Virus record (IMG/VR): IMGVR_UViG_2585427782_000001
Source: a virus
Taxonomy: Duplodnaviria; Heunggongvirae; Uroviricota; Caudoviricetes
DNA length: 33,888 nt
Reading direction: 5' to 3' (one strand)
A program made the position numbers and the translations under genes. Below are positions 1 to 24,660 of this stretch, piece after piece. A model generated the notes under the pieces. It saw nothing but the letters and a program-made list of their open reading frames with translations, did not search any database and was not told where the DNA came from. The first letter of the stretch is position 1; every line of letters starts with the position of its first letter.

Positions 1-72
1 ACGGAGTTTTCAGGGGGAAATGAAACCCGCCCACGTAACATCGCCTTCAATTATATTGTGAGAGCTGCATAA
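1..72 (+). CDS. 3' end of an alternative tail-fibre C-terminal (variable) segment; partial, enters from upstream of the window
   Basis: Frame 1 is open from base 1 to TAA at 70-72 (..TEFSGGNETRPRNIAFNYIVRAA*). The stop overlaps the ATG of the plus-strand tfa copy (TAATG), mirroring the fibre/tfa junction on the minus strand. Confidence 0.3.
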   Translation, partial: TEFSGGNETRPRNIAFNYIVRAA

Positions 73-674
73 TGAATAACGCGATATTAAATAATGACCT
101 TATTGCCGTACAGGCGGGAAACGTCATCGTTTATAACTATGATGGTGAGACGCGGGAATATATTTCCGAATCAACTGAATATCTTGCTGTGGGTGTTGGT
201 ATTCCGGCATGTTCCTGTTTAGAGGCTCCTGGTACACATAAGGATGGTTATTCAATTTGCCGCTCTGTGGATTTAAATTCATGGGAATATGTGCCGGACC
301 ATCGCGGTGAAATTGTCTTTAGCACCGAAACAGGAGAATCAAAAGAAATCACAGCACCGGGTGATTACCCTGATAATACAACCACTCTCGCACCGTTAAC
401 GCCATACGATAAATGGGATGGTGAAAAATGGGTGACAGATACTGAGGCACAGCATAGTGCCGCAGTAGGCGCGGCAGAAGCACAGCGTCAGTCACTGATT
501 GATACTGCAATGGCTTCCATTAGTCTGATTCAACTGAAATTGCAGACCGGGCGGAAGCTGACGCAGACAGAAAACACCCGACTTAACGCTGTGCTGGATT
601 ACATTGACGCGGTGACGGCAACTGATACCAGCACCGCGCCGGATATCAATTGGCCTGCTCCCCCGGAGGCGTAG
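72..674 (+). CDS. tail fibre assembly protein (Tfa), second copy in inverted orientation
   Basis: 200-aa ORF. C-terminal half (..[32 protein letters not shown]) matches the conserved Tfa C-terminus recalled from lambda Tfa / Mu U. Convergent with and overlapping the minus-strand tfa. Confidence 0.8.
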   Translation: [200 protein letters not shown]

Positions 675-1062
675 GCCAGACGGGATTTGATGTATCAACG
701 CGCATCAGCAAGACCCGGTATTTTTTCCATTCAGATAACGCGGCGGTTTCTTCTGCCGTCGCGATTTCCGCATCAAAAGCATCCTGTCTCCAGACTATTT
801 CCTTATCAGCCATAGAACGCAATACCGTTCTTTTCTGTTCAGCCTGAATAATCTGTTGTTCAGCGGAGAGTGGCGGGATATCAATCCACGCAGGATTACC
901 ATTTTTATCAGCCCCCAGCGTTTTGCCTTCTGGCGCTACGCCTGTGTAAATTGCCATTGTTTCATCATCAACATCAGCGCCATTTTCAGGCCATGAACCG
1001 GCGCTGATATATACATCTTTTAGTGCTTCCGGATAGAAAGAGCCTTTATAAAATTTATTCAT
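646..1062 (-). CDS. tail fibre assembly protein (Tfa)
   Basis: Starts [12 protein letters not shown] at an ATG 2 nt after the fibre stop. C-terminus ..[36 protein letters not shown] closely resembles lambda Tfa (..[36 protein letters not shown]). The ORF track's 646..1092 uses an upstream in-frame start. Confidence 0.8.
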   Translation of the reverse strand: [138 protein letters not shown]

Positions 1063-1064
1063 TC

Positions 1065-1823
1065 TTAATACCCCAGCGCGATAAAACAACAATCTTCGGT
1101 GCCCTCTCCGGATGGCGACCAGTTCTGAATACTGATATGCGTTCTGCTGGCAATACGCACATTCATCGCGGCATTGTAGCCAGATGTTCCACGGTTTCCG
1201 GTCGCAAACAAACCTGCATAGGGAAAAGCAAATGGTAAGGCATATCCAGCATCAACTCCCTTTTGTGTTGCCACCGTTCCCCACTGCAACATAAGTTTCA
1301 CCGGGTTTCCTGTCGTCGCAATGCATGGAATGTAGATGTAGCCATTACCTGACATCATTGACCTGAAGCTGTCTAAATCCAGTAACTTCGAGGCATTATC
1401 TGCTCCAACATCTCGTGTTGCAGCGGTCCCTAACTGGAGCGCATTTCGGAAGGCTGATACATCAGAAATATCATATCCATTAGCCGATTTCTGCATAGCT
1501 CCGGAGGCTTTATCTATCGTTTCTCCCAAACTAAGGTTTTCGAGAGCCGTTTGCACAGTGCCATCCGATTTGATATCGCCAAACGGATTCTTGCGGCTTA
1601 ACAGCAGCGTACGAAGCGCGGTAAGCAACTGGTCGTGCCGCGCCTTCTCCAGGCTGGCACCGGAGGCCTCCACCACGCTACAAAGTTCTTCCTGCAACAT
1701 GTCAAAGTAGTCATCATCCAGATCGGTGGCAGGTGTGCCGGTCTGGGGGTTACCACGGGTAAAACCGTTCTTACCCGCGCCGAACTTATCCTTCTGCGCG
1801 GTTTTCGTGTCTATACGATGCAT
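1065..1823 (-). CDS. tail fibre protein (short Mu S-like fibre with constant N-terminus and variable C-terminus)
   Basis: 252-aa ORF directly downstream of the baseplate genes and upstream of tfa; it contains the hix/gix-like site at 1521-1546. Confidence 0.7.
1521..1546. other. candidate Hin/Gin/Pin-family inversion crossover site inside the tail fibre gene
   Basis: ttctcccaaactaaggttttcgagag matches the recalled hixL site TTCTTGAAAACCAAGGTTTTTGATAA at about 19 of 26 positions, including the AAAC-N-AAGGTTTT core and central AA. Confidence 0.5.
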
Positions 1824-1826
1824 GGA

Positions 1827-2411
1827 TTACTCCGGATATTTAAAAATTACGTAGGTATGCGAAGGGCAGAGTTTGTTAAGCACGCACTCGACAACGGTGT
1901 CGCCCCAGATACGCAGTGCGGAATCACAGGGATCGCCACATGTCATCCAGGTGGTGTTGGTGGCGGCTGGCATGTTGACCTGCCAGTAATACCGCCATTC
2001 CGGCGCATTCACTGCGTCAGTACAGGCCGATGAGCAGGTGAACGTGCTTTTATCGTATCGCGTGATAGTGGCGTCTGGTCTGCCCAGGGCAGCAAGCTGT
2101 GCAAGGTAAAAATCCTCATTGATGCCGCCCGCCAGATTAACCTTCGCATCCAGCCGTTGCTGACGCTGGCGAAGGGTCTGTGTCCCTGCGGGAATACATT
2201 CATCCGGCAGGCCGCACAGACGCTCCCAGCGATTTATCAGTTCGGTGGTGGTGCGCGGATCCAGCTCCCGCATCAGGGCATCCGCACGCTGATGAACGCG
2301 GGTTAATGACGGTGCCGCACCGGCAATCGCCGGATCGCTGGCTGACCACGCCGGACCGGGGGGCAACAGTGCCGACAACAGACGGATGTAATCATCGTTT
2401 GTCACGTCCAT
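1827..2411 (-). CDS. Mu gp48-like tail protein (DUF2313-type)
   Basis: 194-aa ORF between the baseplate J-like gene and the tail fibre, matching Mu/P2-type tail gene order; family assignment by position and recalled similarity. Confidence 0.65.
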
Positions 2412-3460
2412 GAAATCGTCCCCAGTACCGCCAGTTCATTTTTTGCAATGGAGATATTGTCTGCCGGTGCAAGCAACTGATGGCTGTATTCCCCGTTCGC
2501 ACCGGAAATCGCTTCACTGATACGCGACACCTTCAGTTCTCCCTGCGGATAACCATCACGCAGCAGGAACGAACGCAACTCGGTGGTGATGGCAGCCCGT
2601 ATTTCTGGTGTATCCGGCGTCACACGGATATGAAAATCCACCGTATGCGCCACCGGCCTGAACACATACAAATCAGAGCCTGCCACCGGGGCCAGTGGCC
2701 CGATATGTTGTCTTGCCGCCGTTTCCGTTGATTCTTCCGGAATGGGATTAATCAGGTCGCTGCTGGCAATCATCACACCGACAGTCCCCGTTCCCATCCA
2801 GTGTCGGTATGTCCATGCGCGGGTAATGCCGGGCACTTCTTTAGCCCAGACGACATAGTCCCCGTCAGCCCCGCCCTGAGGCGTCCAGTAATACCGCTCA
2901 ATGACGCGGGCGCGCCACGTTTCCAGCTCTTCAGTATCAAATCCACCTGTCAGTGTATCTGCCACGCCGGAAGACGGCAGACCATTCACCGGCGTGACCA
3001 GGATTAATGACGTACCGTCGTCAGCGTTACCGACCGCGCCTGCACTTGAGCAGGCGATCGGCACGCGCAGGACACCACCGGAGCTGGTTGCATCGGCAGT
3101 TGCCGTGTACTGAACCAGGTCATCGCGCTGAATAACACTCCCGGCGGTCACCTTCAGGCCATCGCTGACACCTTCCCAGCGCATATACCCGCTGGCAGCC
3201 GTGGCCCCCTTGCGCGGACACCGTTTCATCGCAGCATGTCGCGCCAGCCAGGACTCATCGCACAGGTCAGGCAGCATGTTCATTGCCAGATAATCGATGT
3301 ACCCGTAAACCGTATGCAGCGCCGCCGCATACACCTTTGCCCGCACGTCTTCATCCATGCGCCGGAGCGTGTCGCTGACGTCCAGCCTGGCGAATAAATC
3401 GTTACGGAGCATACTGATATTTTCTGCCAGCGTCGGGCGCTGAAATTCACTGTCCGCCAT
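2402..3460 (-). CDS. baseplate J-like protein (Mu gp47 / P2 gpJ family)
   Basis: 352-aa ORF; size and position in the baseplate operon; overlaps its neighbours by a few nt as in coupled operons. Confidence 0.75.
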
Positions 3461-3875
3461 GCGTTATCGCACTCCACAGATCATCAAAAGAAATCATTAC
3501 CGGTCCGTCACGACGCCAGAGAGTGATACTGTTACCCAGTTCATTAATCCCGGTGCGGCGGATATCCAGATCAATACGGGACACCACGCCGTCATCAATC
3601 ATCCATTGCAGGCATTCGCGGATATACCCCCTTACCGTCTGCACCAGCTGATTGGTCAGTTTGCTGCGCTGAAGCAGCCACAGTCGGGAGCCGTAACGGT
3701 CATTCTGTACCGCAGGCCAGGTATCCCCCCACCATCCCATCGGGACGTCGGCGTTGTCATCAGGCTCCGCCCGCCGCCAGGTAAACAGGGAAATCACCAC
3801 GGCGCGGGTCAGCGGATCCAGCGGTGCGCTGGCGCAGGTGCGTTTACCGTTCACCGTCAGCCACAGTTCCATCAT
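3447..3875 (-). CDS. baseplate protein (Mu gp46-like)
   Basis: 142-aa ORF between the baseplate V-like and J-like genes. Confidence 0.6.
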   Translation of the reverse strand: MMELWLTVNGKRTCASAPLDPLTRAVVISLFTWRRAEPDDNADVPMGWWGDTWPAVQNDRYGSRLWLLQRSKLTNQLVQTVRGYIRECLQWMIDDGVVSRIDLDIRRTGINELGNSITLWRRDGPVMISFDDLWSAITHGGQ

Positions 3876-4420
3876 GCCTCCATCGCTTTATCCGGTTTGT
3901 CGGTGTTACTGCCCTGACCGTTCTCTCTGTGACGATGCCCGTTATAGGCAAGCCGCATCGCTGACATGGTGGTGCCGCTGGAGTCGCACAGGTCTTTCAC
4001 CTGTCCGGTCACTTCCAGGTCCATTTCAAAACGAGCCTTAGGCGCATTGCGAAACGTGATCGTTTTACCTGCACCGTCCACCACGATCCCCGCCCGGGTC
4101 AGCGTCACGGACTGCCCCTGATCGTCATAGACAGCCACCTCACCCGTCTGCAGCCCTTTCAGGCGGTAGCGCCGGTCCGACACCGTAACAACCACCGCAT
4201 GAGAACGGTCACCATCCGGAAACAACACCACCGCTTCCGCACCGCTGTTTGCCCTTGCTGTAAAACCGTAGGGTTCAAGATGTTCAACCCCGGCTTTGGG
4301 TTCACCGGCAATCAGGGACACATCCACGGTCTGACATTTCGTGGCGGCACTGATGCTTTTCACCACGGCCCGCCCAATCAGGCCGAGGAGTTGTCGCTGC
4401 ATGGCTTCAATCGTCCTCAT
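3872..4420 (-). CDS. baseplate assembly protein V / spike (Mu gp45-like)
   Basis: 182-aa ORF; position in the conserved myovirus baseplate gene order. Confidence 0.65.
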   Translation of the reverse strand: MRTIEAMQRQLLGLIGRAVVKSISAATKCQTVDVSLIAGEPKAGVEHLEPYGFTARANSGAEAVVLFPDGDRSHAVVVTVSDRRYRLKGLQTGEVAVYDDQGQSVTLTRAGIVVDGAGKTITFRNAPKARFEMDLEVTGQVKDLCDSSGTTMSAMRLAYNGHRHRENGQGSNTDKPDKAMEA

Positions 4421-5499
4421 CAGAACGGGTCCTCCTGTACTCTGGCTTTTTTCTTTTTCCGCGCGCCGGGGGCTTCGGGTTCAGGCAGATAAGCATCAGG
4501 CGGGCCGACACGGATTTCCGTCAGGGTGCCGTTCTGGTCCTGAGTAAACGTGACTTCCGAGACAAGCAGTTCGGTATTGTCGAAACCACAGACCGGATCG
4601 AAGACAATCACCCGCTGGTTGGGTTGCCACAGCGTACCGTTACCCTGTCGCCAGCCCTGCACCACATAGGTGGTTTCATCCGTCCGCGCCGCCCGTTGTC
4701 GGGCTTCAAAGTCCGCACGGGCAATACAGCCTGCCCCCGTAGCCTGCCCTGTCTGCCTGATATACATCGGACGGTAACGGGCAATAAATGCGTCCTCTGT
4801 GCGGGCCCGCAGCGCGGTGGTGGTGGCCTCACCGAAATCATCGTCGTTTCCGGCACGCTGCCCCGCCACCTGGTAAACAGAAAACCGCTCCCGGATACTC
4901 TTCTCCGTATCGCAGGAAAGGATGTTTTCCCCGAGTACCAGCGCAGTATGTGCCCGCGTTGAGCCAATACCGCCAATCACCAGCCTGCCGTGCGGGTCGT
5001 CGTAAGCCAGTGCCTGCTGCTGACCGAGTATTTTGTTGATTACCTCAATCACCGTTTCACCGTGATCAGGCTGGACATCAGGAATAACACCCGACGGCGC
5101 ACCGCTGTTCACCACCTCAATGCCGAAAGGCGCAGCAAGCGCCTGCGCAATCTGCACCAGCGAGCGTCCGTTAAACTGTGTCGGTTCGGCTGCACAGTCA
5201 ATCAGGTCAGCAGTCAGACTACGTCCGGCAATACCGGTGCTGACCGAACGGGCATCGTAACGAACGGGCGTCGCCTCCACCCAGCCGGTGATCACCAGCT
5301 CATCACCAATCAGCACTTCCACTTTTGAACCGTTTTTAATGCGCGGCTGAAGCGTGGTGATACCCTCATCTCCCGGCCACTGGCGGGTAATCTCCACGCT
5401 GAAATCCCGCGCCAGTCGTTCAATACCGGCACCGATGCGCACCGATGTCCAGCCATTCCACTCCCGGCCATTTACCCGTAGCGTGACATTGTCGTTCAT
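4420..5499 (-). CDS. baseplate hub / tail protein (Mu gp44, P2 gpD-like)
   Basis: 359-aa ORF following the DNA circulation-like gene; contains a lysine run near the C-terminus. Confidence 0.65.
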   Translation of the reverse strand: MNDNVTLRVNGREWNGWTSVRIGAGIERLARDFSVEITRQWPGDEGITTLQPRIKNGSKVEVLIGDELVITGWVEATPVRYDARSVSTGIAGRSLTADLIDCAAEPTQFNGRSLVQIAQALAAPFGIEVVNSGAPSGVIPDVQPDHGETVIEVINKILGQQQALAYDDPHGRLVIGGIGSTRAHTALVLGENILSCDTEKSIRERFSVYQVAGQRAGNDDDFGEATTTALRARTEDAFIARYRPMYIRQTGQATGAGCIARADFEARQRAARTDETTYVVQGWRQGNGTLWQPNQRVIVFDPVCGFDNTELLVSEVTFTQDQNGTLTEIRVGPPDAYLPEPEAPGARKKKKARVQEDPF

Positions 5500-6866
5500 T
5501 GCACTGGCACCTTCAGAGGGATCACCGGCACAAAGCCGGGATGCGTAATGGCATTACGCCGGATAATGTCCGCGTCACGCGCCGCGTTATCAAACCAGGT
5601 CGCCGCCAGCACCAGCGCGGGTAAAACCTCATCCGGTGTGCGCTGAATGATCCGTGCAGACTGTTCAAGGCGCGTGTTGATATCCGCATTCAGATCTGCT
5701 TTCACCCGGCGCAGCGCCAGAAACAGCGCATCACTGGTTGTACGGGACAACTCCTTATCAATTGCCGTATTCAGTGTGTCGCGAATGTCAGTCAGTTCTT
5801 CCCACGTCGGCAGGTCAACCGTGTTTTTCACCGCCGGTGCATTGTTCAGTGCCGGATGCGTGACGGAAGGCCAGCCAGTGCTCTGCGCGGGTGTTGTTGC
5901 CTGCCCCACTGCGGAATTCTGCATCACCGCGGAAGTTGTTGGCGCAGGCAATCGTGTGACGGCATACGCCGCTTCGCTGATTGCGGTCGTACGAAGGGTG
6001 CTGGCAACCACGTTACGCTGCTGCGTCGCCGTGGCGGTGGTTTTACTGTCCGTTTTCCAGACGCCGCGCGGTTGCAGATCGCTGCCGAGGCTGACACCGG
6101 AAAGCGTTTTGATCATGGTGACCAGGTCGCTGGCGTTACCATAAAGGCGTTTCCCGGTACGCCACATTTTCTGCACCTGCTCAACGAAATTTTTGCCTGA
6201 CGATGGCGGCGGCAGAAGTACCGAGATATCCCCCTGCAACAGCCTGGCGGCATCCGATACGGCAGAATCCACCACTTTCATCGCATCAGAAACATACCCC
6301 AGCATTATGCTGGCATTACCGATAACGTCGTTCTGCACGAAATCCGCCACACCATCGATACTGAAACCGCTGAAGCTGTCACTGATGCAGTCATCCAGTG
6401 CAGAACAGGATGACATCAGCGTCTGCGCCGTCGCCGCACCTGATGTGGGGTAAGAGAGTTCTCCTGCTTCGACAAACTTCAGGTCAAAGCGGACAATACG
6501 CCCTTCACTTTTCGATGTGCTGACCCGAACTTCCCCGTCAACACAGACTTTCAGCTCACCATATGTCGGGTGGACAAGCGTGCCGGGACCGGGTTTATTC
6601 AGCGCTTCAATCAGGCGATCGCGCTGGTCAAAGCAGTCATCTCCCACCACATAAGCTGTGATGGACGGGCGGAAAGTGACTTTTCCCAGATCTTCGGTAT
6701 AGGGTTTGTCGCGGTTCGGGTATTCGTGCGTTTCCACACGACGACCGGTTCCCGCACTTTCTTCTTCAACCTTAAACGGCACACCGCGAAATGACGCGTC
6801 CTGAAGTCTGTCTTTCCACGTCATATAAACTCCGTACATAAAAAATCCCACCGGAGTGGGACTCAT
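5496..6866 (-). CDS. Mu gp43-like DNA circulation protein (tail/baseplate)
   Basis: 456-aa ORF immediately downstream of the tape measure gene, as in Mu. Confidence 0.65.
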   Translation of the reverse strand: MSPTPVGFFMYGVYMTWKDRLQDASFRGVPFKVEEESAGTGRRVETHEYPNRDKPYTEDLGKVTFRPSITAYVVGDDCFDQRDRLIEALNKPGPGTLVHPTYGELKVCVDGEVRVSTSKSEGRIVRFDLKFVEAGELSYPTSGAATAQTLMSSCSALDDCISDSFSGFSIDGVADFVQNDVIGNASIMLGYVSDAMKVVDSAVSDAARLLQGDISVLLPPPSSGKNFVEQVQKMWRTGKRLYGNASDLVTMIKTLSGVSLGSDLQPRGVWKTDSKTTATATQQRNVVASTLRTTAISEAAYAVTRLPAPTTSAVMQNSAVGQATTPAQSTGWPSVTHPALNNAPAVKNTVDLPTWEELTDIRDTLNTAIDKELSRTTSDALFLALRRVKADLNADINTRLEQSARIIQRTPDEVLPALVLAATWFDNAARDADIIRRNAITHPGFVPVIPLKVPVQ

Positions 6867-6884
6867 TAACAGATTAATTTTTCA

Positions 6885-8720
6885 TTACCTGCCAAAGCGC
6901 GTATAGCCAACATCATGGCTGACATCAAAACCGCTGGATCGCGTTTCCATAACCCGCATACCCGGAGGCGAATTCACAAAAGAGACCTTGATCTCACCAT
7001 CAACTTTTGGCGCAGAAGCTTTGTTAATCATGAAGGGGTTCGGGCCTGTGACATCGGAGGCGTTGTTTGACTGAGCCGGATCCACCACCGGATAAGGTGT
7101 GTATCCCCGCGCCGGTATTCCCGTCCCATAAGCATCATAAGCACCCGCGCCCCACTGCGCAGAGTTAATGGCATCGACCGTGTCACCGGAACTGTCGGTA
7201 AACCACTCAATAATTGGCTTCAGCTTGTCCCACATATCCTGAAACCACTTAACAACCGGCCCCCAGTTATTGATCACCATCCCCAGCGGCGACCAGGCAA
7301 AAACTTTCTTAAGGAGTTCCCAGCCAGCCTCAAAATAAGGACCAATGGTTTCCCAGAGTTTCTTAAAATAAGGTCCGACAACATCCCAGTTAGTGATAAT
7401 TAATCCCGCAGCCAGGGCTATCGCCGTCGCAATCATGCCAATCGGCGTCATCGACATGATCCTGCTGACAATACTGATGGCACCGCCAACACCCATCAAT
7501 CCCAGTTTCAGAATCGCAAGACCGGCAGCAAGCCCAACGACGCCGCGAATAACCCGGGGATTTTCATCCGCAAACTTCGTGAATTTCTCCCCCAACTCCC
7601 CCAGCCATTGCGTGATATTTTTAGCGTCACCAGAAAATGCGCCGCCAATAGCCGCAAGGCCGTTAGTTGCGGTCCCCGTCATTGCCTCCCACAGGTTGGA
7701 CAGCGTACCAAGCTGGGCCTGAACACGTTTATTCAGGCTGGCCTGTTTATTCATCTTCTGCTGGATCTGATCGTAGCCATCCTTTCCTTTATCGATTAGT
7801 GCATTGACCACCTGAAGGGTTTCGGCATCATCACCAAATATTGCCTTAAGTACACCTGTTCGCTTAACGTCGGTCAGTTTTCGCAGCTTTGCCAGTTGCC
7901 TGAACATGTTATCAAGACCGCCAAAACTTCCTTTGCCGTCAGTAAAATCGAGCTGTACCCCGAGTTTCTGGCGGGCCATGATTTTATTGACGTCCCTGAT
8001 TTTCTTAACGCTTAATCCGGACTGGATAACTTTTCGCAGGGCGTTACCTGCCGACTCCCCGTTCATCCCCATCTGATCCATCATGACGCTGATGGGGGCA
8101 AGGCTCTGTGCAGCCTGAAGACCGTCCTTGTTCACCATCTTCAGAACAGAGCTGGTTTTAGTGAAGAAGGACAACATGTTGGTATCGTCAACACCCAGAT
8201 AAAACGCCTTCTGGATAGTGTCGAACAGCCCCATCATGTCTTCTGACGCCGTTCCGGTAGCATCCTGCATCTTTGCAGCAAACTCAGCAGCCGCTTCCGG
8301 TGTTTTTTTCAGTTGTACCGCAAGATAAGCTGTCGCTTTACCCACACCACCAAGAATGTTTTCTGCCGGGATCCCCTGACGCACCAGCATCTGCATCATG
8401 TTCTGGAAATCAGCCGTTGTACCGGGTAGCTGGTTACCCAGGCCAATAGCCAGTTTATTGATGTCCTGAAAGCTCTTTCCAACCTCGCCGTTCGCATCCA
8501 TCATGGCGACTTTCAGCCCGGTGGCGGCGTTTTCCTGATCGGCATAAGATTTCAGGGAAAGCGTCAGACCAGCTGCCAGTCCGCCACCAAGCGCCAGCCC
8601 ACCCTGTGACGCTTCTTCCGCCTGGCGTTTAAATCCCCGGATTTTCTTTTGCATTTTCGACAGCGCGGGAGAAAGTCTGTCGACACCGGTGATCAACGCC
8701 TTAAGCTCAAATTCAGCCAT
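6885..8720 (-). CDS. tail tape measure protein
   Basis: 611-aa ORF with Ala/Gly-rich and hydrophobic segments typical of tape measure proteins; sits between the chaperone and baseplate genes. Confidence 0.85.
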   Translation of the reverse strand: MAEFELKALITGVDRLSPALSKMQKKIRGFKRQAEEASQGGLALGGGLAAGLTLSLKSYADQENAATGLKVAMMDANGEVGKSFQDINKLAIGLGNQLPGTTADFQNMMQMLVRQGIPAENILGGVGKATAYLAVQLKKTPEAAAEFAAKMQDATGTASEDMMGLFDTIQKAFYLGVDDTNMLSFFTKTSSVLKMVNKDGLQAAQSLAPISVMMDQMGMNGESAGNALRKVIQSGLSVKKIRDVNKIMARQKLGVQLDFTDGKGSFGGLDNMFRQLAKLRKLTDVKRTGVLKAIFGDDAETLQVVNALIDKGKDGYDQIQQKMNKQASLNKRVQAQLGTLSNLWEAMTGTATNGLAAIGGAFSGDAKNITQWLGELGEKFTKFADENPRVIRGVVGLAAGLAILKLGLMGVGGAISIVSRIMSMTPIGMIATAIALAAGLIITNWDVVGPYFKKLWETIGPYFEAGWELLKKVFAWSPLGMVINNWGPVVKWFQDMWDKLKPIIEWFTDSSGDTVDAINSAQWGAGAYDAYGTGIPARGYTPYPVVDPAQSNNASDVTGPNPFMINKASAPKVDGEIKVSFVNSPPGMRVMETRSSGFDVSHDVGYTRFGR

Positions 8721-8880
8721 GTGTGCGTTTCTCCTGCTCTATCCTGTTTGCCTGACTGACCAGCAAGGGAATTTCACTGATCGGCATATTCAGCAATTCG
8801 AAGGGATTAATGCGCCAGTAACTGGCGCAGTCAAAGAAGCGATCAGTGAGGTATTCAGCCGTCAGGCCTGGAGGAAAAAA
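8713..8880 (-). CDS. -1 frame extension of the tail assembly chaperone (predicted programmed frameshift product)
   Basis: The -1 frame is open from the slippery heptamer TTTTTTC (plus 8874-8880) to a stop at 8713, adding about 55 aa and ending in an ATGGCTGA overlap with the tape measure start. Confidence 0.55.
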   Translation of the reverse strand, partial: FFPPGLTAEYLTDRFFDCASYWRINPFELLNMPISEIPLLVSQANRIEQEKRTHG

Positions 8881-9131
8881 CCGGCCACAAGCCACGCCGC
8901 TGCATTCAGGTCTGCCGGAGACATCTGGTCGACAGAGCTTTGCGGCACTTTCGCCAGCCGCACAATGTATTTCGACACCACATGCGCCAGAAGTCTGACG
9001 GACTCATCCTGATTCATCTGGTAGGGATACCCCAGCTCGCGGACATCCTTCCCGGTGGGTTCATCAAACTCCAGTACGGAAAGTGTCTCACCATGAGCGA
9101 TAATCGGTTTCTTTAACTCAAGCTCTTTCAT
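8862..9131 (-). CDS. tail assembly chaperone (upstream ORF of a frameshift pair)
   Basis: 89-aa ORF between the tube and tape measure genes; ends ..AGFFLQA* just after a T_TTT_TTC slippery heptamer. Confidence 0.7.
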   Translation of the reverse strand: MKELELKKPIIAHGETLSVLEFDEPTGKDVRELGYPYQMNQDESVRLLAHVVSKYIVRLAKVPQSSVDQMSPADLNAAAWLVAGFFLQA

Positions 9132-9487
9132 TACTGGTAATCCCCTTCTTCACCGTGGAACTCAAGATCAACCGTGCCTTCTTCGGCATTATGGTTCGCT
9201 TCGCCGTGCAGCCAGGCGGACGACAATACATAGACCTGACCGTTCGCCAGCTCGGCAGTGATGGTCATCTCATCAGACGAGGTGATTTTGCTCACCGGAA
9301 AATTCTTCGGCACCTTGAAGGTCCCTTTGACATAAGGCGCACGGTGAGTTTCCTTGCGGTCCACTGAACCGTCCAGGCCGATGATGTCATCATTGACCGT
9401 CCTGTTCATGGGCACCTCAATGCCGCCGGTCAGCGATAGCTGCTGACCGTCAATTTTGAAATAACAGGTTCCCCCGATACGGGCCAT
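9131..9487 (-). CDS. tail tube protein (Mu M-like)
   Basis: 118-aa ORF immediately downstream of the sheath gene. Confidence 0.75.
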   Translation of the reverse strand: MARIGGTCYFKIDGQQLSLTGGIEVPMNRTVNDDIIGLDGSVDRKETHRAPYVKGTFKVPKNFPVSKITSSDEMTITAELANGQVYVLSSAWLHGEANHNAEEGTVDLEFHGEEGDYQ

Positions 9488-10983
9488 TATGCAGACTCCT
9501 CTGAATACTGAAGACGGAACTGATTAACCACGGCAAAGACACGCAGCTGGTTAACATAGTCAGGCGGGAACAGCGTGTTCAGGCGGTTCGGATCGCTGGC
9601 ATCACGCTCCACAACCAGGTGCTGCTTAAACAGTTCGTAGTTTTCCACGATCCCCGCATGCTCAAGCTGACGGTAGGTTGCCAGCAGTTCCCCTTTGATC
9701 ACCGCCGGTGTGACAATCGCCTGACCGGGACCAAAGCGGGTACCGTCGCTGGCAAGCTTGTGACGCCCGTACTTACTGGTAATGACGGATTTCAGTTTGC
9801 GCAGCACATACGCGCTGGTATGCAGCGTCTCGCTGTCGAGGTAGCTGTTATCCGCAACCCCGTAAGCGTTTTTCCTGTACGTGGTGACATCACGCTGAAT
9901 GCGCAGTACCCCGCTTTCGACATACGCCGTTGCCACGCCATGAGACAGCAGGGTCTGTTGTTCGGTCATCGTGAACCGTTTCCCCTTCGGCGCAGGCAGC
10001 ATACCCACCAGCTCACCGGTCTGCGTGGGACGTGCCGGATCGTTGCGGATAAACACCGCTGCGCGGGCGGTACGGCTTGCCGCCAGCTCGTCGGCAGGCG
10101 TCTGGGTCTCTTTTTCGTATCCCGCCAGGGTAATGTGCTGCTGGTTAAACTGGTCACCTGCGGTCACCAGTTCTGACAGCGTGCCGATCTTTGCCGTATA
10201 CACATGACCATACAGCTGACGCGCATAGCTCCAGCGACCGCTGGTATCGTTCATCTCGGTCACCAGCGTGTTAACGGAGGCCGTGTCGTTGAACGGCAGG
10301 CCGATATAATCAAACGGCTCATCCGCCATTGCAGCCACCGCGCCGGTGAGAACAGGAGCGCCCGTTCCAGCGGTACCCGTCGCCACGGCAATCTGTACGC
10401 CCGCTGGCAGCACTTCGCCCCCACCAAAGCCGTAGTAATTGAGGCTGACAGGAATTTCATTCCCGCAAAGCCCCTTATGACGCGCGGTCAGTGTGACCAC
10501 GCCTGCCGAAGATGAAGCCGTAAACGGCAGGGTCGGAACGGCATTGATGGCATCCTGAATACTACTGGCAATCATCGTGACGTTATCGCCGTTAGTCACC
10601 GGTGCCTGCACGCGGGTACGTCCCACATACACATTCACCGTGCCGGTTTCGGTTGCCGCCCCGGTCACCGTCAGCGTAACTGTTGCCGCCGCGCCCGTGG
10701 ATTCAGGAACGGCAATCACATACAGTTCACCAAACGGGTCGGTCTGGCGATAAGCCTCGACCATACGCGCCAGCTGACTTCCCGCACCACAAATCTGGCG
10801 TGCATAGTCTGCCGATGGCATCAGCACCAGACTGTTGGCAACAATCTCTGCACCGTTACTGGCGTGACCAATCAGCAGCGATGCCCCGCTGTCCTGTGCA
10901 GTATTCGCCGCCGAGTTATCCATTTCCGCATAAAACAGCGGAACCAGCGTATTCGACGGAATGGTGTTAAAGCTTATCGTCAT
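9487..10983 (-). CDS. contractile tail sheath protein (Mu L-like)
   Basis: 498-aa ORF; size and position (sheath-tube-chaperone-tape measure order). Confidence 0.85.
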   Translation of the reverse strand: MTISFNTIPSNTLVPLFYAEMDNSAANTAQDSGASLLIGHASNGAEIVANSLVLMPSADYARQICGAGSQLARMVEAYRQTDPFGELYVIAVPESTGAAATVTLTVTGAATETGTVNVYVGRTRVQAPVTNGDNVTMIASSIQDAINAVPTLPFTASSSAGVVTLTARHKGLCGNEIPVSLNYYGFGGGEVLPAGVQIAVATGTAGTGAPVLTGAVAAMADEPFDYIGLPFNDTASVNTLVTEMNDTSGRWSYARQLYGHVYTAKIGTLSELVTAGDQFNQQHITLAGYEKETQTPADELAASRTARAAVFIRNDPARPTQTGELVGMLPAPKGKRFTMTEQQTLLSHGVATAYVESGVLRIQRDVTTYRKNAYGVADNSYLDSETLHTSAYVLRKLKSVITSKYGRHKLASDGTRFGPGQAIVTPAVIKGELLATYRQLEHAGIVENYELFKQHLVVERDASDPNRLNTLFPPDYVNQLRVFAVVNQFRLQYSEESA

Positions 10984-11145
10984 CGGTGTTCACCTTTTTA
11001 TTCACGCGCCGGATATCACCCGCTGCTTCACGGCGCAGCCAGTAGTTGTTCTCGTCAACATTTCGCCCTTCGGCGGGCAAAAGGTCACCGCGGGCAGGGT
11101 CAGGCACTGACCGCCCTTTAACAGGTTTCACAAACATGAAGATTC

Positions 11146-11706
11146 TCAGGAAGGAAGGGTTATTTCGGTGTGATGTTCGATATCGCCGTCAGGCCCGTTA
11201 CCGGGATCGAGATAATCAACATCAATCGCCAGCGTTCGCAGTTCATCCAGACTGTTCAGGTCATCCTGCTGGCGGGTATCGTCTTCGGTCAGCTCGCTGA
11301 TGACCGAAAAATCGAACTGATAAATCAGCTCATGACGATTCAGATCCAGCAGCGTGCCGCCGTCATAGGTAATCGGGTTACCGCACGCTTCCGGGTTCCA
11401 GCCCAGCAGGGCCTTAAAGAGCATCTGCCGGACATCGTCCACCACATCATACGAAGCAAACTGACCGCGCTCATCACGCCCGTTACTCAGTATGACAACC
11501 ACGGAGAAGCCCTCTTTCAGCTCCTGCCAGTAGTCGGTCTGGCTTTTGTTTTCTCCCGGAGAGTCATCACCCGGTACCACATACGCCGCCGGGAGTCTCA
11601 GCTTTCCGACCTCCGGCAGATTTTTGAACTGTGCCGCGCCTGCCACCCGGTTTTCAAAATACGGGCAGCGGGCACGCAGCGCAGCAATAACAGGCGTCAG
11701 TTTCAT
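11146..11706 (-). CDS. hypothetical virion protein (neck / tail-completion region)
   Basis: 186-aa acidic ORF between the head-completion genes and the sheath. Confidence 0.4.
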   Translation of the reverse strand: MKLTPVIAALRARCPYFENRVAGAAQFKNLPEVGKLRLPAAYVVPGDDSPGENKSQTDYWQELKEGFSVVVILSNGRDERGQFASYDVVDDVRQMLFKALLGWNPEACGNPITYDGGTLLDLNRHELIYQFDFSVISELTEDDTRQQDDLNSLDELRTLAIDVDYLDPGNGPDGDIEHHTEITLPS

Positions 11707-12209
11707 CTGCGTCGTCGCTCCGGCTTCAGTGATTTACGTAATTCCCGCGCCAGAAAATAGCGTGTCCAGCTGCGGTTCTTTTCAAGCGTTTCCACCATGA
11801 AGTTATTACGTGGAGCCAGTCGCCAGCCGCTGCCACCGGATGCACCACGATGATGACTACGACGACGTTTTGCTCCTCCCCGGACACCAAAAAACAGAAA
11901 CGCCGGATAGAAGTCACCAGAGATCATCCGGTTCCCCTTCCCGTTGCGCTGGTTAGGGGCAATGCGTGTCATAAAACCGGATCGCTTTTTACTGGCTCTC
12001 GGCACCATATAACCAATCGAACGAGCCAGGCGTCCGGTCTGATAACCGGGGTTTTCACCCGGTGCCGACCGCGCACGGCGCATCACCAGCCGACGGGCAT
12101 CACGCATATGACGCTGCCCAATCGTGACAAACGCCCGCCGGACACGGGCGCGGTTAAAGCGCATCTCCGCGGGCTGCTGAACATCAACGTGCAAAAAGGG
12201 AGTCGCCAT
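11703..12209 (-). CDS. hypothetical head-tail joining protein (possibly HK97 gp10-like)
   Basis: 168-aa strongly basic ORF in the head-tail joining cluster; start uncertain. Confidence 0.4.
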   Translation of the reverse strand: MATPFLHVDVQQPAEMRFNRARVRRAFVTIGQRHMRDARRLVMRRARSAPGENPGYQTGRLARSIGYMVPRASKKRSGFMTRIAPNQRNGKGNRMISGDFYPAFLFFGVRGGAKRRRSHHRGASGGSGWRLAPRNNFMVETLEKNRSWTRYFLARELRKSLKPERRRR

Positions 12210-12594
12210 TGCTGCCTCCGTGACTCTGCGTAAATTCGCCCAGCTCTGTACACTCCAGCAACAGAAAGCGCCGCGCCCCGTTCAGATCGCGCTGACGTTT
12301 CACCCGGTACACACAGTCATCAGACACCACCTCATAATCAGCGGTGATCCCCCGGCGATAACGAATGGTGATGTAATGGGTGATGGCGTCTCCGGTCTGC
12401 GCGGTTTCCTGCCAGGTGGTGGCACTGGTCTGGATAACCTTCGCCCATGTCCGGAACACAACCGGGTATTGAGGCTCCACGCCAAAGTTATCCGCGGGCA
12501 TATCCACCCGCTGGCGGAGCAGGACGCGTTTATTCAGTTCGCCGGGGTCCGGCAGCATGTAGGTTGCGCTGGTCTGCGCCTGACGAATTTTCAT
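12184..12594 (-). CDS. head-tail adaptor / head closure protein
   Basis: 136-aa ORF following the gp6-like connector gene, HK97-like order. Confidence 0.5.
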   Translation of the reverse strand: MKIRQAQTSATYMLPDPGELNKRVLLRQRVDMPADNFGVEPQYPVVFRTWAKVIQTSATTWQETAQTGDAITHYITIRYRRGITADYEVVSDDCVYRVKRQRDLNGARRFLLLECTELGEFTQSHGGSNGDSLFAR

Positions 12595-12914
12595 TGCGGA
12601 AAGTACCTGTACGGGCCGACAAGCCAGCCAAAACTCTGTGGCATGTCGAGTTTCTCCACTTCCGTAACCGACGAGCGGTTTTCGTAAAAATGGCTGATAA
12701 GCATCAGCATCCCCAGACGAATATCATCCTGCAGGTGCAGCCCGTCCGGATCGCTGTCCGGAATGGTTTCATCCGGTGCATAGAGCTTCCGGTTCAGATA
12801 CGTTTCCGTCCGCTTTTGCGCCGCACAGGCCAGCAGTTGCAGATGGCGGTCATCAGTATCGAAATCCTCATCCAGCCGGAGTTGGGCTTTAATCTCTTCC
12901 ATTGTCAGAAGCAT
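12591..12914 (-). CDS. head-tail connector protein (HK97 gp6-like)
   Basis: 107-aa ORF shortly downstream of the major capsid gene. Confidence 0.55.
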   Translation of the reverse strand: MLLTMEEIKAQLRLDEDFDTDDRHLQLLACAAQKRTETYLNRKLYAPDETIPDSDPDGLHLQDDIRLGMLMLISHFYENRSSVTEVEKLDMPQSFGWLVGPYRYFPQ

Positions 12915-12916
12915 AC

Positions 12917-13117
12917 TCAGCCCTCTTTACTGGTCGTGGCTTTTTTCTCTTTTGCCGCTTTACTGCTTTTTGCACTGGTTCCGCGCTCTGCTAACCCGGC
13001 CTGAAGTGCAATCTCCTGCACCCGGGCAGGAATCGCCCCGTCGTCATACTCACCGGCCCGAATGACCTCAACACGCATACCGTCCGGTGACCATTTCAGA
13101 TCTTGTTTCAGGATCAT
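12917..13117 (-). CDS. small hypothetical protein with Lys-rich C-terminus
   Basis: 66-aa ORF between the capsid and connector genes; no recognised family. Confidence 0.3.
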   Translation of the reverse strand: MILKQDLKWSPDGMRVEVIRAGEYDDGAIPARVQEIALQAGLAERGTSAKSSKAAKEKKATTSKEG

Positions 13118-13165
13118 GATTCTTCACCCGTCAGAACAGGGGCGCGGTTCCGCGCCCCTGAGTGA

Positions 13166-14371
13166 TTACGCCACTGCAATCTTCAGCAGTTTGATGGCCT
13201 GCGAATCGACCAGCATGCCGCCGGTGCGCTTGGTGGTATAAAAACCGACAAACGGTTTATTGGTGTACGGGTCGCGCAGAATGCGGGTACCGATACGGTC
13301 AACGATGGTGTACCCCCGCTTGAAGTTACCAAATGCAATGGCTTTCGCATCAGCGGCGATATCCGGCATCTGTTCGTTTTCAGCGATACCGTAACCCGCC
13401 AGAGAGGACGGCTGCCCCAGTTCCAGCCCCGGACGCCACAGATAGTTACCCTCGCTGTCTTTCAGCAGACGGATGGCAAACAGGCTGTTGTTGTTCATCA
13501 TGAACTTCGCGCCAGTGCGGTGTGCCTTACGCAGCGTGTAAATCAGTTTGATAATGGCGTCTGCGGTCACCGTCGTCGCTTCACCGGATACGATATGCTG
13601 AAGTTTACCGAACGCACGAACCTTATCGGTTTCATCGGTGGATTCATACGCCAGGAACCCTTTTGGCTTCTTGGTGCCATCGCCGGTGGTAAAGGCAATT
13701 TCTTCCTGTTCGGCAAATTCGGTTGCCAGCTCGCTGTTGATCCATGCTTCCACGTTGAAAAAGGCATCATCCAGCATTTTCTGGGTGGCCTGCGGGTTAC
13801 CGTAGATTTCCCCCATGAAAGGTTCAATCAGGCCAAGTTTTGAGGTGGCAGTCTGGGAGCGCGCGTCAGTCTCGCCAACCCATCCGGAAGCCGTGCCGCC
13901 CAGATTCACCAGTTTTTTGTAGTCGGAACCACCAACGGTGATCACCGTGGCTTCCTGACGCATCACCACTTCATCTTTCAGCAAGGTCAGAATGTTGCGA
14001 TCCAGCTCTTCCGGCACGGCATAGCCACCGTCTTCATCGGTGCCTACCTGTAATGCCTTGCGCTCCAGATCGCGCAGACCATCTTCACGGCCTTTACGCA
14101 GGAAGCCCACAAACGCTTCTTTATGCTCGGTGGCCAGTTTATTTTGCGCACCACCTGCCGGACGTTTCAGCTCAAGCAGCTCTTTTTCAAGGTCGCTTTT
14201 GAGGTTTTCCAGCTCGCTGAGTTTCCCGTTCAGGGTTTCCACCTGCCCGGCAAGTTTGCCTTTTTCCTGCTCAATCGCATCCACGCGCTTGTCGTTCTTT
14301 GCTTTGAAGTCGTCAAACTTCTGCTGCAGCTCCTGCGCGACCTGTTCGACATCTTTAATATCAACCGCCAT
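13166..14371 (-). CDS. major capsid protein, HK97 fold, with N-terminal coiled-coil delta/scaffold domain
   Basis: 401-aa ORF; first ~100 residues are coiled-coil-like (KLSELENLKSDLEKELLELK); follows the prohead protease gene. Confidence 0.9.
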   Translation of the reverse strand: MAVDIKDVEQVAQELQQKFDDFKAKNDKRVDAIEQEKGKLAGQVETLNGKLSELENLKSDLEKELLELKRPAGGAQNKLATEHKEAFVGFLRKGREDGLRDLERKALQVGTDEDGGYAVPEELDRNILTLLKDEVVMRQEATVITVGGSDYKKLVNLGGTASGWVGETDARSQTATSKLGLIEPFMGEIYGNPQATQKMLDDAFFNVEAWINSELATEFAEQEEIAFTTGDGTKKPKGFLAYESTDETDKVRAFGKLQHIVSGEATTVTADAIIKLIYTLRKAHRTGAKFMMNNNSLFAIRLLKDSEGNYLWRPGLELGQPSSLAGYGIAENEQMPDIAADAKAIAFGNFKRGYTIVDRIGTRILRDPYTNKPFVGFYTTKRTGGMLVDSQAIKLLKIAVA

Positions 14372-14385
14372 CGTATTTCTCCTGA

Positions 14386-15072
14386 TTAGAAGTTCAGATT
14401 TTTCAGTGCATTCAGTGCAGAGCCCACATCCTCAGCGTCGCGCAGGGACAGTGCGCCATAGCCCCCGGCCATGAATGCTTTGGCCTGGGTACGGGAGAGT
14501 CCGACATCACGCAGGACTCTTTCGATTTTTTTCTGTTCGGGGATTTCCCCGCGGGCCAGTGCGTTCTTGACGTCGCTGATCCGCGCCTCGTCGTTAGACG
14601 GGAACGTCACCAGGCTGACTTCCCAGAGGTCGATTTCTTTCAGCAGAAAGGCTTCTTTGCTCCGGTCGTATTCCCAGTCTTTCAGGACGTACCCAATAGA
14701 AAGGCCGGTTAACGAACCGGCCTTCATGTGTGCATGTGCGCGTTTTGCGAGGGGATCATCATCAATAAGCAACCGTCCCCTGACGTAAAGCCCGACATCG
14801 TCTTCCTTCATTTCGGTGTAAACACCGATGGGTTCATCCATGCGGTGCTGCCAGAGCAGCGCAGGTAACGCTTTTCTGTCACTCCACGCCCGCAGGGAAG
14901 CAGCAAATGCCCCGGACATCACCACATCATCGTGGCTGTCCTTTACACCAAAGACGGAGCCATACCCTTCAAACTCACCGGAGTCACTGACAGATTTCAG
15001 ACTCAGCGGTACATCAAGACGTTGTTTCGTCTGCATTGGCGTTATCCTTCTGCTTACCGGCTTTACTGCCAT
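14386..15072 (-). CDS. prohead maturation protease (HK97 gp4 family)
   Basis: 228-aa ORF between portal and capsid; start may be internal given the 59-nt overlap with the portal gene. Confidence 0.8.
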   Translation of the reverse strand: MAVKPVSRRITPMQTKQRLDVPLSLKSVSDSGEFEGYGSVFGVKDSHDDVVMSGAFAASLRAWSDRKALPALLWQHRMDEPIGVYTEMKEDDVGLYVRGRLLIDDDPLAKRAHAHMKAGSLTGLSIGYVLKDWEYDRSKEAFLLKEIDLWEVSLVTFPSNDEARISDVKNALARGEIPEQKKIERVLRDVGLSRTQAKAFMAGGYGALSLRDAEDVGSALNALKNLNF

Positions 15073-16255
15073 CGGAGGGTTTCGTGGTCATGTTCATCGG
15101 TGTGAGATAGACATCACCACCGGGTCGTGGATTCATATCTTCCAGGTCGCGGCAGTCATTGGGAGAGTAAATTCCCCAGTTGATCCCGGTGGCGTAGGCT
15201 TCAAAACGGGACTTCATATCCCCGCGCAGTAACGCCCCGGCGTTAAATTTGGCGTAATAAACGCCCTGCTTACTTTTTCGTACCAGTCCGGTGTTGATCC
15301 GCTGTTCGATGCGGGTCAGATACGGCACCAGTGAATAGTTGATAAATCCCAGCCCCAGCTCTTCGATATTGTTGAAGGTGGCGCGATCGGTGTTCTGCAC
15401 CATGTGCAACGGCACCCGGAACAGACGACAGATTTCTTCAAGCTGAAACTTGCGGGTTTCCAGGAACTGGCTGTCCTCGGCGTTCAGCGCCATCGACTTC
15501 CAGTCCAGCCCCATCTCAAGGATCATCGGGCGGTGAGCATTGCCAAGCCCGGTGTGACGCTCCTCAAAATCTTTCTTCAGGCGCTCATAAGCCTGATCTG
15601 ACAGCGTCTGCTCTGTACGCAACACACCCGACGTCACCGCGCCATTGCTGAACAGTCTGGCCCCGTGCTCTTCGGTCGCTGCCGCCAGCGATATTGCCTC
15701 GCGGGCATAGGCGATGGGATTCAGCCCCACCAGTCCGTCCAGCGTCAGCGTGCGCACATGCCAGATATCCTCCTGGCTCAGTACATCCGCGGAGCCATCC
15801 GGGAATGTGACCTGATAGACCGGTTCCCAGCTACTGTTAAGCTTCGGTACCACACAGCCGGGATCGACGGGCAGCAGTTCAGCCACTTCGCCAAATGCTT
15901 TCACTTTGTAGGCGTAAAAGTTTCCCCTCAGGCACAGACAGGTGACCACCAGCTCCCAGAACTCCTGCGGCGTCATATAGCCATTGGGATGCGTGGAGAT
16001 CAGCTTATGCAGACGTTCGCCGGTGGCTCTCTGTTTAAGGCTGCCGTTCAGGTGATACAGATTGCAGGGCAACATCCCGACCGACTCCGCCAGCACCCTG
16101 ACACAGGAAAAAACCGCCGTCAGTCGCATGGCCCGCTGGCTGCTGATCTGCTTTCCGGTATAGGTGTCGTAGGACAACCCGATAGCATCCGCCAGCTCTG
16201 CTGGCGTGGTCACCGGTGCGTCACTTTTTCGTTGAAATAATCCCGAAAAGAACAC
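15014..16255 (-). CDS. portal protein (HK97 family)
   Basis: 413-aa ORF downstream of the large terminase. Confidence 0.85.
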   Translation of the reverse strand: MFFSGLFQRKSDAPVTTPAELADAIGLSYDTYTGKQISSQRAMRLTAVFSCVRVLAESVGMLPCNLYHLNGSLKQRATGERLHKLISTHPNGYMTPQEFWELVVTCLCLRGNFYAYKVKAFGEVAELLPVDPGCVVPKLNSSWEPVYQVTFPDGSADVLSQEDIWHVRTLTLDGLVGLNPIAYAREAISLAAATEEHGARLFSNGAVTSGVLRTEQTLSDQAYERLKKDFEERHTGLGNAHRPMILEMGLDWKSMALNAEDSQFLETRKFQLEEICRLFRVPLHMVQNTDRATFNNIEELGLGFINYSLVPYLTRIEQRINTGLVRKSKQGVYYAKFNAGALLRGDMKSRFEAYATGINWGIYSPNDCRDLEDMNPRPGGDVYLTPMNMTTKPSDGSKAGKQKDNANADETTS

Positions 16256-16437
16256 TATTTACCTCCGCCGACAGACGACTGTGTACGGTCGAGATATCGC
16301 GCCACCAGCCACGACCAGAACAGGCACAACGCCCCGGCAACAACAACCCCCGCCGGGGGATAAATCAGCCAGGCACCATACGCCAGCAAAAGCGCCCCCA
16401 GCACGCCCACCAGAGGCGCGAGAATCAGCATGATCAT
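16255..16437 (-). CDS. small hydrophobic protein
   Basis: 60-aa ORF with two hydrophobic stretches, wedged between terminase and portal; could be non-coding. Confidence 0.3.
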
Positions 16438-16448
16438 AATTACCTCAG

Positions 16449-18182
16449 TTAAAGCGAGCGGATCCCATAGGACTCAATGTGGTCAGACAGCGTGTCTTCT
16501 TTCTCGTACAGCATGGCTCTGCCAACCGCCATAATCAGCGCAACTGCACCATCGATTTTGTTTTCCGCCTGCTCTTTGACGGGCTTCACCACATCATCGT
16601 TACCTGGCATGTTTTTGCCGACCACATTGCCGATACACCAGGTCATGATGGGATTGCCGTCATGATGAAAGCGTCCCGATTCAATCGCTGCTTCCAGCTC
16701 TTTCATCGGATCGGACATATTGGCGAAGTTCTGGACGATAGTGACGGGATTCAGATCTTCATCAGCAAGGTCATGTGACAGCCCGGTCGCCCCGAAGGGG
16801 TCGATGGGTGACTCACTGACCGGGCTGATTTTGTTCGCCGCTTTGGCCTCCTCGAGGATGTAGCGATAATCCACCTCCGCACCATCGGTAACGGTCAGAA
16901 CGCCCATTTCCACCCATTTCTGAAAGCGTTCGGCTGTCCGTCGATCTTCATTTTTCTCGACGCTGTACACCGTGTCATACGGTACCCAGAAACGCGGGGC
17001 CACACTGTAGTAATGCGTTTTACCGTCAATCTCGCGGGTATAAAGTCGCGCCATGCTGTTCATATCCAGCTTACGCGCCAGGTCAAAGGCCAGAATGCAC
17101 GGCTGCCCCTCGAACTGCTCAAGGGTCAGTGATTTATCCTCGCAGCTCTGCCAGCTCACCAGGTTGAAATACGCCGAACGCGCCGACACCCAGATATTGA
17201 GGTGTTTTGTTTTAAAGACGTTTGCCAGACGGGCGTTATTTTTCGCACGCTGCTGCTGACTTAACAAAAATTCGCGATAAACCGACACGCCAATATTTGG
17301 ATTGGCTTTTTCCAGCACCTGCGGGTCGGTCCAGTCGTCACCTTCATCAACGGTATAGATGATCCCGAACAGTTCATCGTTAGGCACCGAGCCGTTGAGC
17401 ATCTCGATGACTTCCCGCCGTTTGTCGTAGCACGGCCCCTCAATGTTGTACCCGGCGGTAGTGATAGCCCACATCAGTGGCTGACGTCGCGCCCCCATCC
17501 CGGTAAGCATCGTGGTGTAAAGCGCATCTGTGGCGTGCTCGTGATATTCATCCACCACCGCACAGTGGGGTGATGAACCATCACCGGGGTTACCGATCAG
17601 CGGTTCAAAACGCGCACCATCCTCCGGACGGTTCATGTTTGAGGCGTTAACCTCAATCCCGAACGCTTCCGTCAGCATGGGTGTGCGTTTACACATCAGT
17701 CTTGCCGGACGAAAGACTTCCCATGCCTGTTTCTCCGTCGTGGCACCGGAATACACTTCCGCGCCGAACTCGTTATCACAGGCAAAACAATACAGGGCGA
17801 CACCGGCAGAGATTGCCGATTTGCCGTTCTTACGGGGGATTTCGGTATACACCTCACGGAAGCGGCGCAGCCGGGAGCCTTTATTGACCCAGCCAAACGC
17901 GCAGCAGATCACAAAGAGCTGCCACGGCTCCAGCGTGATGGGCATCCTCTTGAATGCCCACTCACCCTTGGTGTGCGGCAACAGCTGAATAAATTTCGCG
18001 GCCCGTTCAGCCAGGTCCTTGTCGAAGCGGTAACGAAACGACTTACTTTTTTCCTCCATCAGGTCATCAAGATGGCGCTGGCAGGCCTGAATCACAAACT
18101 GGCAGGCCACAATCTTTCCGCGCACGACATCACGGGCATACTGATTGGCAGCATTTACGTTGGGGTAAGATTTCCGGCTCAT
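16449..18182 (-). CDS. terminase large subunit
   Basis: 577-aa ORF with ATPase-like N-terminus and nuclease-like C-terminus; position after the small terminase. Confidence 0.9.
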
Positions 18183-18682: not shown

Positions 18683-18723
18683 TCCTGGTTAAATTTCATT
18701 TTTCGCGGGTATAAAAAAACGAT

Positions 18724-18772: not shown

Positions 18773-18798
18773 TCCCCTCAGACAGTTGAGAGTTATTA

Positions 18799-19968: not shown

Positions 19969-19999
19969 TTGCATGAGTTGCCCATCGATATGGGCAGCG

Positions 20000-24652: not shown

Positions 24653-24660
24653 ATTAGACA

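Follow-up and report, generated by a model that had tools for sequence, protein, structure and literature searches.

The first 1,546 bases of the DNA analysed here very probably make up most of an invertible tail-fibre cassette of about 1,924 base pairs (bp), of the type of the e14 P segment, in an SfV-like lambdoid prophage. The stretch, referred to below as the window, is the entire contig JOQN01000030.1 (33,888 bp; assembly GCA_000714105.1), and the record holds no sequence upstream of it. The prophage has a head of the HK97 type and a contractile tail of the Mu type, and the cassette occupies the end of its tail operon. We are highly confident of the architecture of the cassette and of its origin as an invertible segment; that it is still switching in this strain today we consider reasonably likely, at a clearly lower level of confidence.

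At the left end of the contig (1-2411), two modules, each consisting of a variable fibre tip followed by its tail-fibre assembly chaperone (Tfa), face each other, and the minus-strand module is joined in frame to a constant fibre N-terminus. The variable and constant parts are named Sv, S'v and Sc, as in phage Mu, and lengths are given in nucleotides (nt) and amino acids (aa). The open reading frames (ORFs) and other features of this region are as follows.

1-72, plus strand (reading frame 1): end of a second fibre C-terminus (S'v; StfE-like, Pfam Collar type), 23 codons and the stop codon at 70-72.
72-674, plus strand: Tfa chaperone of 200 aa, TfaE-like, partner of S'v (Pfam Caudo_TAP, E 3.7e-33).
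646-674, no strand assigned: overlap of 29 nt between the convergent tfa 3' ends, from the ORF coordinates.
646-1062, minus strand: Tfa chaperone of 138 aa, partner of the tip predicted to be expressed (Pfam Caudo_TAP, E 1.8e-31).
1065-1823, minus strand: fibre gene, 252 aa, with a Gp53-like_C domain (Pfam) at residues 177-252.
1065-1520, minus strand: Sv, the variable C-terminal part of that fibre, bearing the Gp53-like_C domain; P2-like cassettes are about 99% identical to it.
1521-1546, no strand assigned: crossover site of the pix/gix/hix type, 26 bp, TTCTCCCAAACTAAGGTTTTCGAGAG, at codons 93-101 of the fibre gene and encoding ALENLSLGE.
1547-1823, minus strand: Sc, the constant N-terminal part of the fibre, about 92 codons, placed outside the invertible segment by homology to e14 StfP and to phage DNA.
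1827-2411, minus strand: YmfQ/Mu gp48-type baseplate gene, directly upstream of the fibre gene (Pfam Phage_Mu_Gp48; the RefSeq homologue is ymfQ).

The 26-bp site was compared with reference crossover sites taken from annotated e14 and Mu records. It agrees at 25 of 26 positions with the site inside stfP of e14 in E. coli K-12 (TTCTCCCAAACCAAGGTTTTCGAGAG), and at 17 of 26 with the Mu sequence centred on the annotated G-segment boundaries (gix; TTCCTGTAAACCGAGGTTTTGGATAA), so that the original prediction of a Hin/Gin/Pin-like site at these coordinates holds. The crossover dinucleotide, AA at 1533-1534, is the same as in the e14 and Mu sites, and 8 of the 12 half-site positions show dyad symmetry. 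Within the window the sequence is unique at up to three mismatches, where shuffled sequences lead one to expect 0.00 matches, and it is still unique at up to eight; no inverted partner was found in the window, either at up to eight mismatches or by an inverted-repeat search. The sole difference from the e14 stfP site is a C-to-T substitution at position 12, adjoining the crossover core.

That this site is the boundary between the constant and variable parts of the fibre is seen from the points at which homology begins and ends. In a megablast search against phage genomes, SfV, SfI and SfII align with exactly 1521-2500 at 96% identity and with nothing before 1521, and the alignments of e14, SfIV and vB_EcoM-720R4 to the window likewise begin at 1521. 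The DNA of the constant part is 96-98% identical to that of SfV, SfI, SfII, SfIV and e14. At the protein level, residues 1-101 of the fibre are 97% identical to e14 StfP while the remainder is unrelated to it, and Sv (1065-1520) has no homology to e14, SfV, SfI or SfII. Approached from the other side, homology to the cassettes of P2-like prophages stops at 1539 or 1545, and again 391 nt upstream of the window. Every homology breakpoint in the fibre gene thus falls inside 1521-1546, the boundary that had been proposed from the sequence about 90 codons into the gene. The site lies in frame within the gene, and a junction flipped in silico (ymfQ-Sc-core-S'v-tfa200) reads as an open fibre ORF of 250 aa.

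The same cassette is found in both orientations among relatives of this prophage. Among complete E. coli genomes, ECSD228 alone spans bases 1-2500 without interruption, at 97.6% identity and in the orientation of the window. Upstream it carries, in order, the full S'v, an inverted second site, pinE 30 nt further on, a DinI-like gene, an integrase gene and dusA. This second site, TTCTCCCAAACCAACGTTTATGAAAA, is identical to the e14 site that lies between stfE and pinE, and the PinE protein is 96% identical to that of e14 and 78% to Mu Gin. E. coli MEI4O1-23, HeN100 and W21 contain the flipped junction, Sc joined to S'v, uninterrupted and at 97-98% identity. HeN100 and W21 match the cassette (-391 to 1539; 98.6%) on one strand and the backbone (1521-4000; 97%) on the other, the 19 nt in which the two matches overlap being the shared half-site; pinE is intact in HeN100. 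W21 and ECSD228 have identical accessions for both Tfa proteins, YmfQ, baseplate protein J and gp46, and yet their cassettes are in opposite orientations. Orientation therefore differs between genomes, with ECSD228 and the window one way round and HeN100, W21 and MEI4O1-23 the other.

A comparable pattern is seen on an unrelated backbone. P2-like prophages share the cassette at 98.5-99.1% identity between the two cores (-391 to 1539 or 1545), beside a Resolvase/HTH_7 gene, with the Collar tip on the full fibre in loci L002, L004 and L009, and the Gp53-like_C tip in loci L003 and L008. Inversion is reported for P2-like prophages of E. coli, and sequencing and polymerase chain reaction have revealed both orientations side by side in clonal cultures (PMC4272514). 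Measurements on e14 itself have shown that PinE inverts the P segment and that PinQ, encoded by prophage Qin, does so in trans (PMC12529663). The occurrence of one cassette both ways round on a shared backbone, its breakpoints coinciding with the sites, supports the earlier proposal that the fibre C-terminus is switched by site-specific inversion.

These comparisons also bear on a quite different reading, in which the resemblance of the site to known crossover sites reflects nothing but a conserved peptide motif, NLGLGE, and the convergent tfa genes are a fixed mosaic left by ordinary recombination. The site does encode such a motif: the peptide is ENLSLGE here, ENLGLGE in e14 StfP and QNLGLQE in Mu S. 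Against this, an exact inversion of 1.93 kb separates backbones that are 97% identical, with its breakpoints in the 26-mer, in complete genomes as well as in P2-like prophages. Moreover, the inverted partner site lies in non-coding DNA beside pinE, where there is no peptide constraint to preserve it. We consider this explanation to be in effect already refuted, with next to no chance of being correct.

A second assembly extends the sequence towards the partner site. The 2,439-bp contig JOQT01000067.1 shares 2,047 nt with the window without a single difference, including the T at position 12 of the site, and continues for a further 392 nt upstream. The extension supplies the rest of S'v, which is 61% identical to e14 StfE and carries the Pfam Collar domain. 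The contig ends in TTGGTTTGGGAGAA, that is, in the crossover core and the cassette-side half of a second site, inverted with respect to the first; the distance from core to core is about 1,924 bp. The pin-side half-site joined to this cassette half would read TTTTCATAAACG followed by TTGGTTTGGGAGAA, and a full inverted second site is present in ECSD228, HeN100 and W21. Relatives have only two sites, which rules out a multi-site system like Min of p15B.

The ends of the two contigs deserve a separate remark. The window contig starts 392 nt inside S'v and JOQT01000067.1 ends exactly at the core, so that these short-read assemblies break around the cassette. Such breaks could stem from a repeat common to other prophages or from mixed orientations in the culture. 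The end of JOQT01000067.1 at the core is suggestive of mixed orientations, but we discount it as evidence for a mixed population, since the assembly would stop at the same point if the pin region were repeated in the genome.

Several observations weigh against a functional switch in this strain. Neither an invertase gene nor a second site is present in the window; those of the window's own prophage are not visible because the window is the whole contig, and the second site for this sequence can be seen solely as the cassette-side half in JOQT01000067.1. Position 12, T in both contigs, is C in all other cassette-side half-sites scanned. Relatives, in addition, have lost parts of the system: SfIV retains site 1, but an insertion sequence (IS) element truncates its plus-strand tfa gene and it has neither S'v nor pin; the prophage of 2022CK-00450 has an IS5 element adjoining S'v where pin is expected, and its site 1 no longer includes the variable-side half; and the recombinase of W21 is truncated. 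Decayed versions are frequent in this prophage family.

It could therefore be that the cassette of this strain is a frozen relic, in which the invertase or the pin-side half-site has been lost, or in which the C-to-T change cripples the site, so that only the fibre with the Gp53-like_C tip is made. The frequency of decay in the family (the truncated tfa, IS element and missing pin of SfIV, the truncated recombinase of W21) speaks for this, as do the IS5 at the pin position and the broken site 1 of 2022CK-00450, the genome most similar to the window over most of its length, and the substitution beside the core, which is absent from the other scanned loci. On the other hand, the reading frames of Sv, of S'v (in JOQT01000067.1) and of both tfa genes are intact, and so is the cassette-side half of site 2. 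Pin-family invertases furthermore act in trans, PinQ of Qin inverting e14 (PMC12529663), and local loss of the gene therefore need not freeze the switch. We regard a frozen cassette as a possibility to be taken seriously, albeit an unlikely one; the strain has probably kept both an invertase and a complete second site.

The 2022CK-00450 prophage also shows how a site of this kind may be broken. Homology to the window begins there exactly at the core, at base 1533 (locus L017, about 3902-3927), the variable-side half of site 1 has given way to unrelated sequence, and the annotation lists stfP as truncated. The break looks like an aberrant rearrangement at the core itself.

Turning to how the switch would operate, the fibre gene stands directly downstream of the YmfQ/gp48 baseplate gene, and is therefore read from the late tail operon. 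Beyond YmfQ/gp48, the minus strand continues with Mu-type baseplate genes for J/gp47, gp46, gp45 and gp44, and with a gene for a DNA circularization (DNA_circ_N) protein. Transcription from this baseplate operon would enter Sc (1547-1823), which is expected to stay fixed, with both the promoter and Sc outside the segment, whereas Sv, its chaperone, the opposed chaperone and S'v would all lie inside it. In the orientation found here, the Gp53-like_C tip and the 138-aa chaperone would be expressed, and S'v and the 200-aa chaperone would be silent. A serine invertase of the Pin/Gin family is expected to bind the site at 1521-1546 and its inverted partner about 392 nt upstream of the window. Following Fis-assisted synapsis, both strands of each site would be cut at the central AA/TT 2-bp core, and the ends rotated by 180 degrees and religated. 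This chemistry is carried over from Hin, Gin, Cin and Pin, and presumably applies here by analogy. The product of inversion would be an Sc::S'v fibre, predicted at 250 aa, ending in a Collar-type tip and followed by the 200-aa chaperone, and switching between the two fibres would be expected to change the host range of the phage.

The two modules are distinct at the level of their junctions and proteins. The plus strand ends its fibre frame with 23 residues (...ETRPRNIAFNYIVRAA, then stop), resembling the ending of e14 StfE, and the fibre and tfa genes meet in an overlapping TAATG. On the minus strand the junction is TAA-GA-ATG, with the ATG at 1062, 2 nt past the fibre stop. The original prediction had given both modules the same TAA-ATG junction and was slightly wrong in this; its other statements on the layout, namely the convergent tfa genes overlapping at 646-674 and a second fibre C-terminus ending at 70-72 on the plus strand, are borne out by the ORF coordinates and Pfam matches and by the reading frame, respectively. 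The 200-aa Tfa is 85% identical to e14 TfaE, and the identical protein occurs in P2-like prophage cassettes, while the C-terminal half of the 138-aa chaperone is 43% identical to Mu U. An alignment of the two Tfa proteins, which the original prediction had also proposed, gave no BLASTP match at E <= 1e-3 despite the Caudo_TAP domain that they share. A terminator scan of 1-2600 returned three terminator-like matches, against 2.5 expected from shuffled sequences, and none of them in the tfa overlap.

Among known systems, the e14 P segment (ymfQ-stfP-tfaP / tfaE-stfE-pinE) is the nearest. It has the same gene order, follows the same ymfQ/gp48 baseplate gene, and its tfaP and tfaE overlap by 29 nt, as here; its pin-side site and PinE (96%) match those of ECSD228, the closest complete relative. 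It differs in its StfP tip and TfaP, which show no relationship to Sv and the 138-aa chaperone found here, in the length of the segment (1,797 bp (PMC12529663) versus about 1,924 bp here), and in that e14 is a 15-kb remnant, whereas the host element here is a largely complete SfV-like prophage. The G segment of Mu (Sc-gixL-Sv-U / U'-S'v-gixR-gin) follows the same logic, with a constant N-terminus, an in-frame site that encodes (Q/E)NLGL(Q/G)E, opposed modules, an invertase gene just outside and, as here, a baseplate of the gp44-gp48 type. In Mu, however, Sc has about 170 residues, the G segment is about 3 kb long, and U and U' do not overlap. Besides the 17 of 26 positions shared by the sites, there is no more than a brief and weak resemblance to Mu S' (32% identity over 77 aa) and Mu U (43% over 68 aa). 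In its working the cassette resembles the Mu G segment, but the two are different elements. The opposed tip-and-chaperone modules nonetheless confirm the general architecture, that of the Mu G segment and the e14 P region, which had been proposed at the outset.

The cassettes of P2-like prophages contain the identical 200-aa Tfa and occur in both orientations beside a Resolvase-family gene. There the constant part is the N-terminus of a P2 H-type fibre (fibres of 429-505 aa) on a P2-like backbone, and the backbone-side half-site differs from that of the window (GGTATGCGAGAA versus GGTTTTCGAGAG). The tip and chaperone pair predicted to be expressed here, while different from that of e14, is common in P2-like prophages. 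Two more members of this family of Fis-dependent serine invertases are the Hin/hix system of Salmonella flagella and Cin/cix of phage P1, whose sites are likewise 26 bp long, with a crossover core of 2 bp; what Hin flips is a promoter, not a coding C-terminus. The system is thus a Pin/Gin-type switch of the e14 type, and everything found is already described for the family.

Two further roles have been considered for the cassette. In the first, the switch also serves the host, one orientation giving a chimeric fibre fragment on the pin side that blocks the adsorption of other phages. There is precedent in e14, where inversion of the P segment creates StfE2, which blocks adsorption of T2 (PMC12529663), and ECSD228 shares with e14 the pin-side leader ORF (MMPFACYFFIFINVGLGEG...), which there runs through the second site into S'v. 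The variable parts are, on the other hand, unlike those of e14, Sv being unrelated to the StfP tip and S'v only 61% identical to StfE, and the prophage looks largely intact, which makes host-range switching the simpler role. We hold a benefit to the host to be improbable. The second is that the cassette is a mobile module that passes between P2-like and SfV/e14-like backbones through invertase exchange at the crossover sites. Such exchange would explain why 99% identity stops exactly at the cores. Taken together, passage as a mobile module or shielding of the lysogen by a pin-side chimeric fragment, as for e14 StfE2, is still rather improbable, and we retain the e14-type fibre switch as the preferred interpretation.

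The remainder of the contig is in keeping with an SfV-like lambdoid prophage, with a Mu-type tail, an HK97-type head, lysis genes and lambdoid early genes, and it ends inside a lambda-type exonuclease gene. For most of its length the window is closest, at 97%, to the 2022CK-00450 prophage, which is integrated at a tRNA-Thr gene beside proA; a dusA-integrated element like that of ECSD228 was ruled out on the basis of this match. ECSD228 shares only 1-12701 (tail) and 16527-19149 (a terminase/HNH endonuclease block) with the window, while most head genes and the whole early region (12701-16527 and 19149-33888) are unlike ECSD228 and match 2022CK-00450. This patchwork of ECSD228-like and 2022CK-00450-like blocks is ordinary lambdoid mosaicism.

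Some other features lie outside the tail region. Two Rfam matches above the gathering score fall within 25679-25861 on the minus strand, a C4 antisense RNA (25679-25764, 72.7 bits) and an isrK Hfq-binding RNA (25789-25861, 60.7 bits). They are located just upstream of a 202-aa ORF (25024-25632) whose counterpart in 2022CK-00450 is annotated as a 'P22AR C-terminal domain-containing protein' (P22 antirepressor-type), and the arrangement looks like a P1/P7-type antisense-controlled antirepressor module in a lambdoid prophage. A gene for a Bor/Iss-type lipoprotein (19627-19968, plus strand; Pfam Lambda_Bor, E 1e-30) is on the strand opposite to the late genes, and its 2022CK-00450 counterpart is annotated as the increased serum survival lipoprotein Iss. 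At 29527-31837 on the plus strand, a CI-like repressor gene (HTH_3 and Peptidase_S24, 29527-30282) adjoins a 138-aa ORF with no Pfam match and the gene for a 316-aa DUF6414 protein. Because the closest relative shares only patches of this region, it is a possible accessory or defence module. A small ORF among the early genes (26382-26729, plus strand) matches the integron-cassette protein family VCH_CASS14 (E 5e-21).

The window raises no new biological question, and adds one further natural case of a fibre cassette, about 99% identical, that is common to P2-like and SfV/e14-like phages and bounded by crossover sites. For annotation, it means that short ORFs named 'phage tail protein' or 'hypothetical' at the ends of prophages are halves of one switchable fibre gene, and that contig breaks at such cassettes are to be expected in short-read assemblies. 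The host range predicted for this prophage depends on the orientation that happens to have been assembled.

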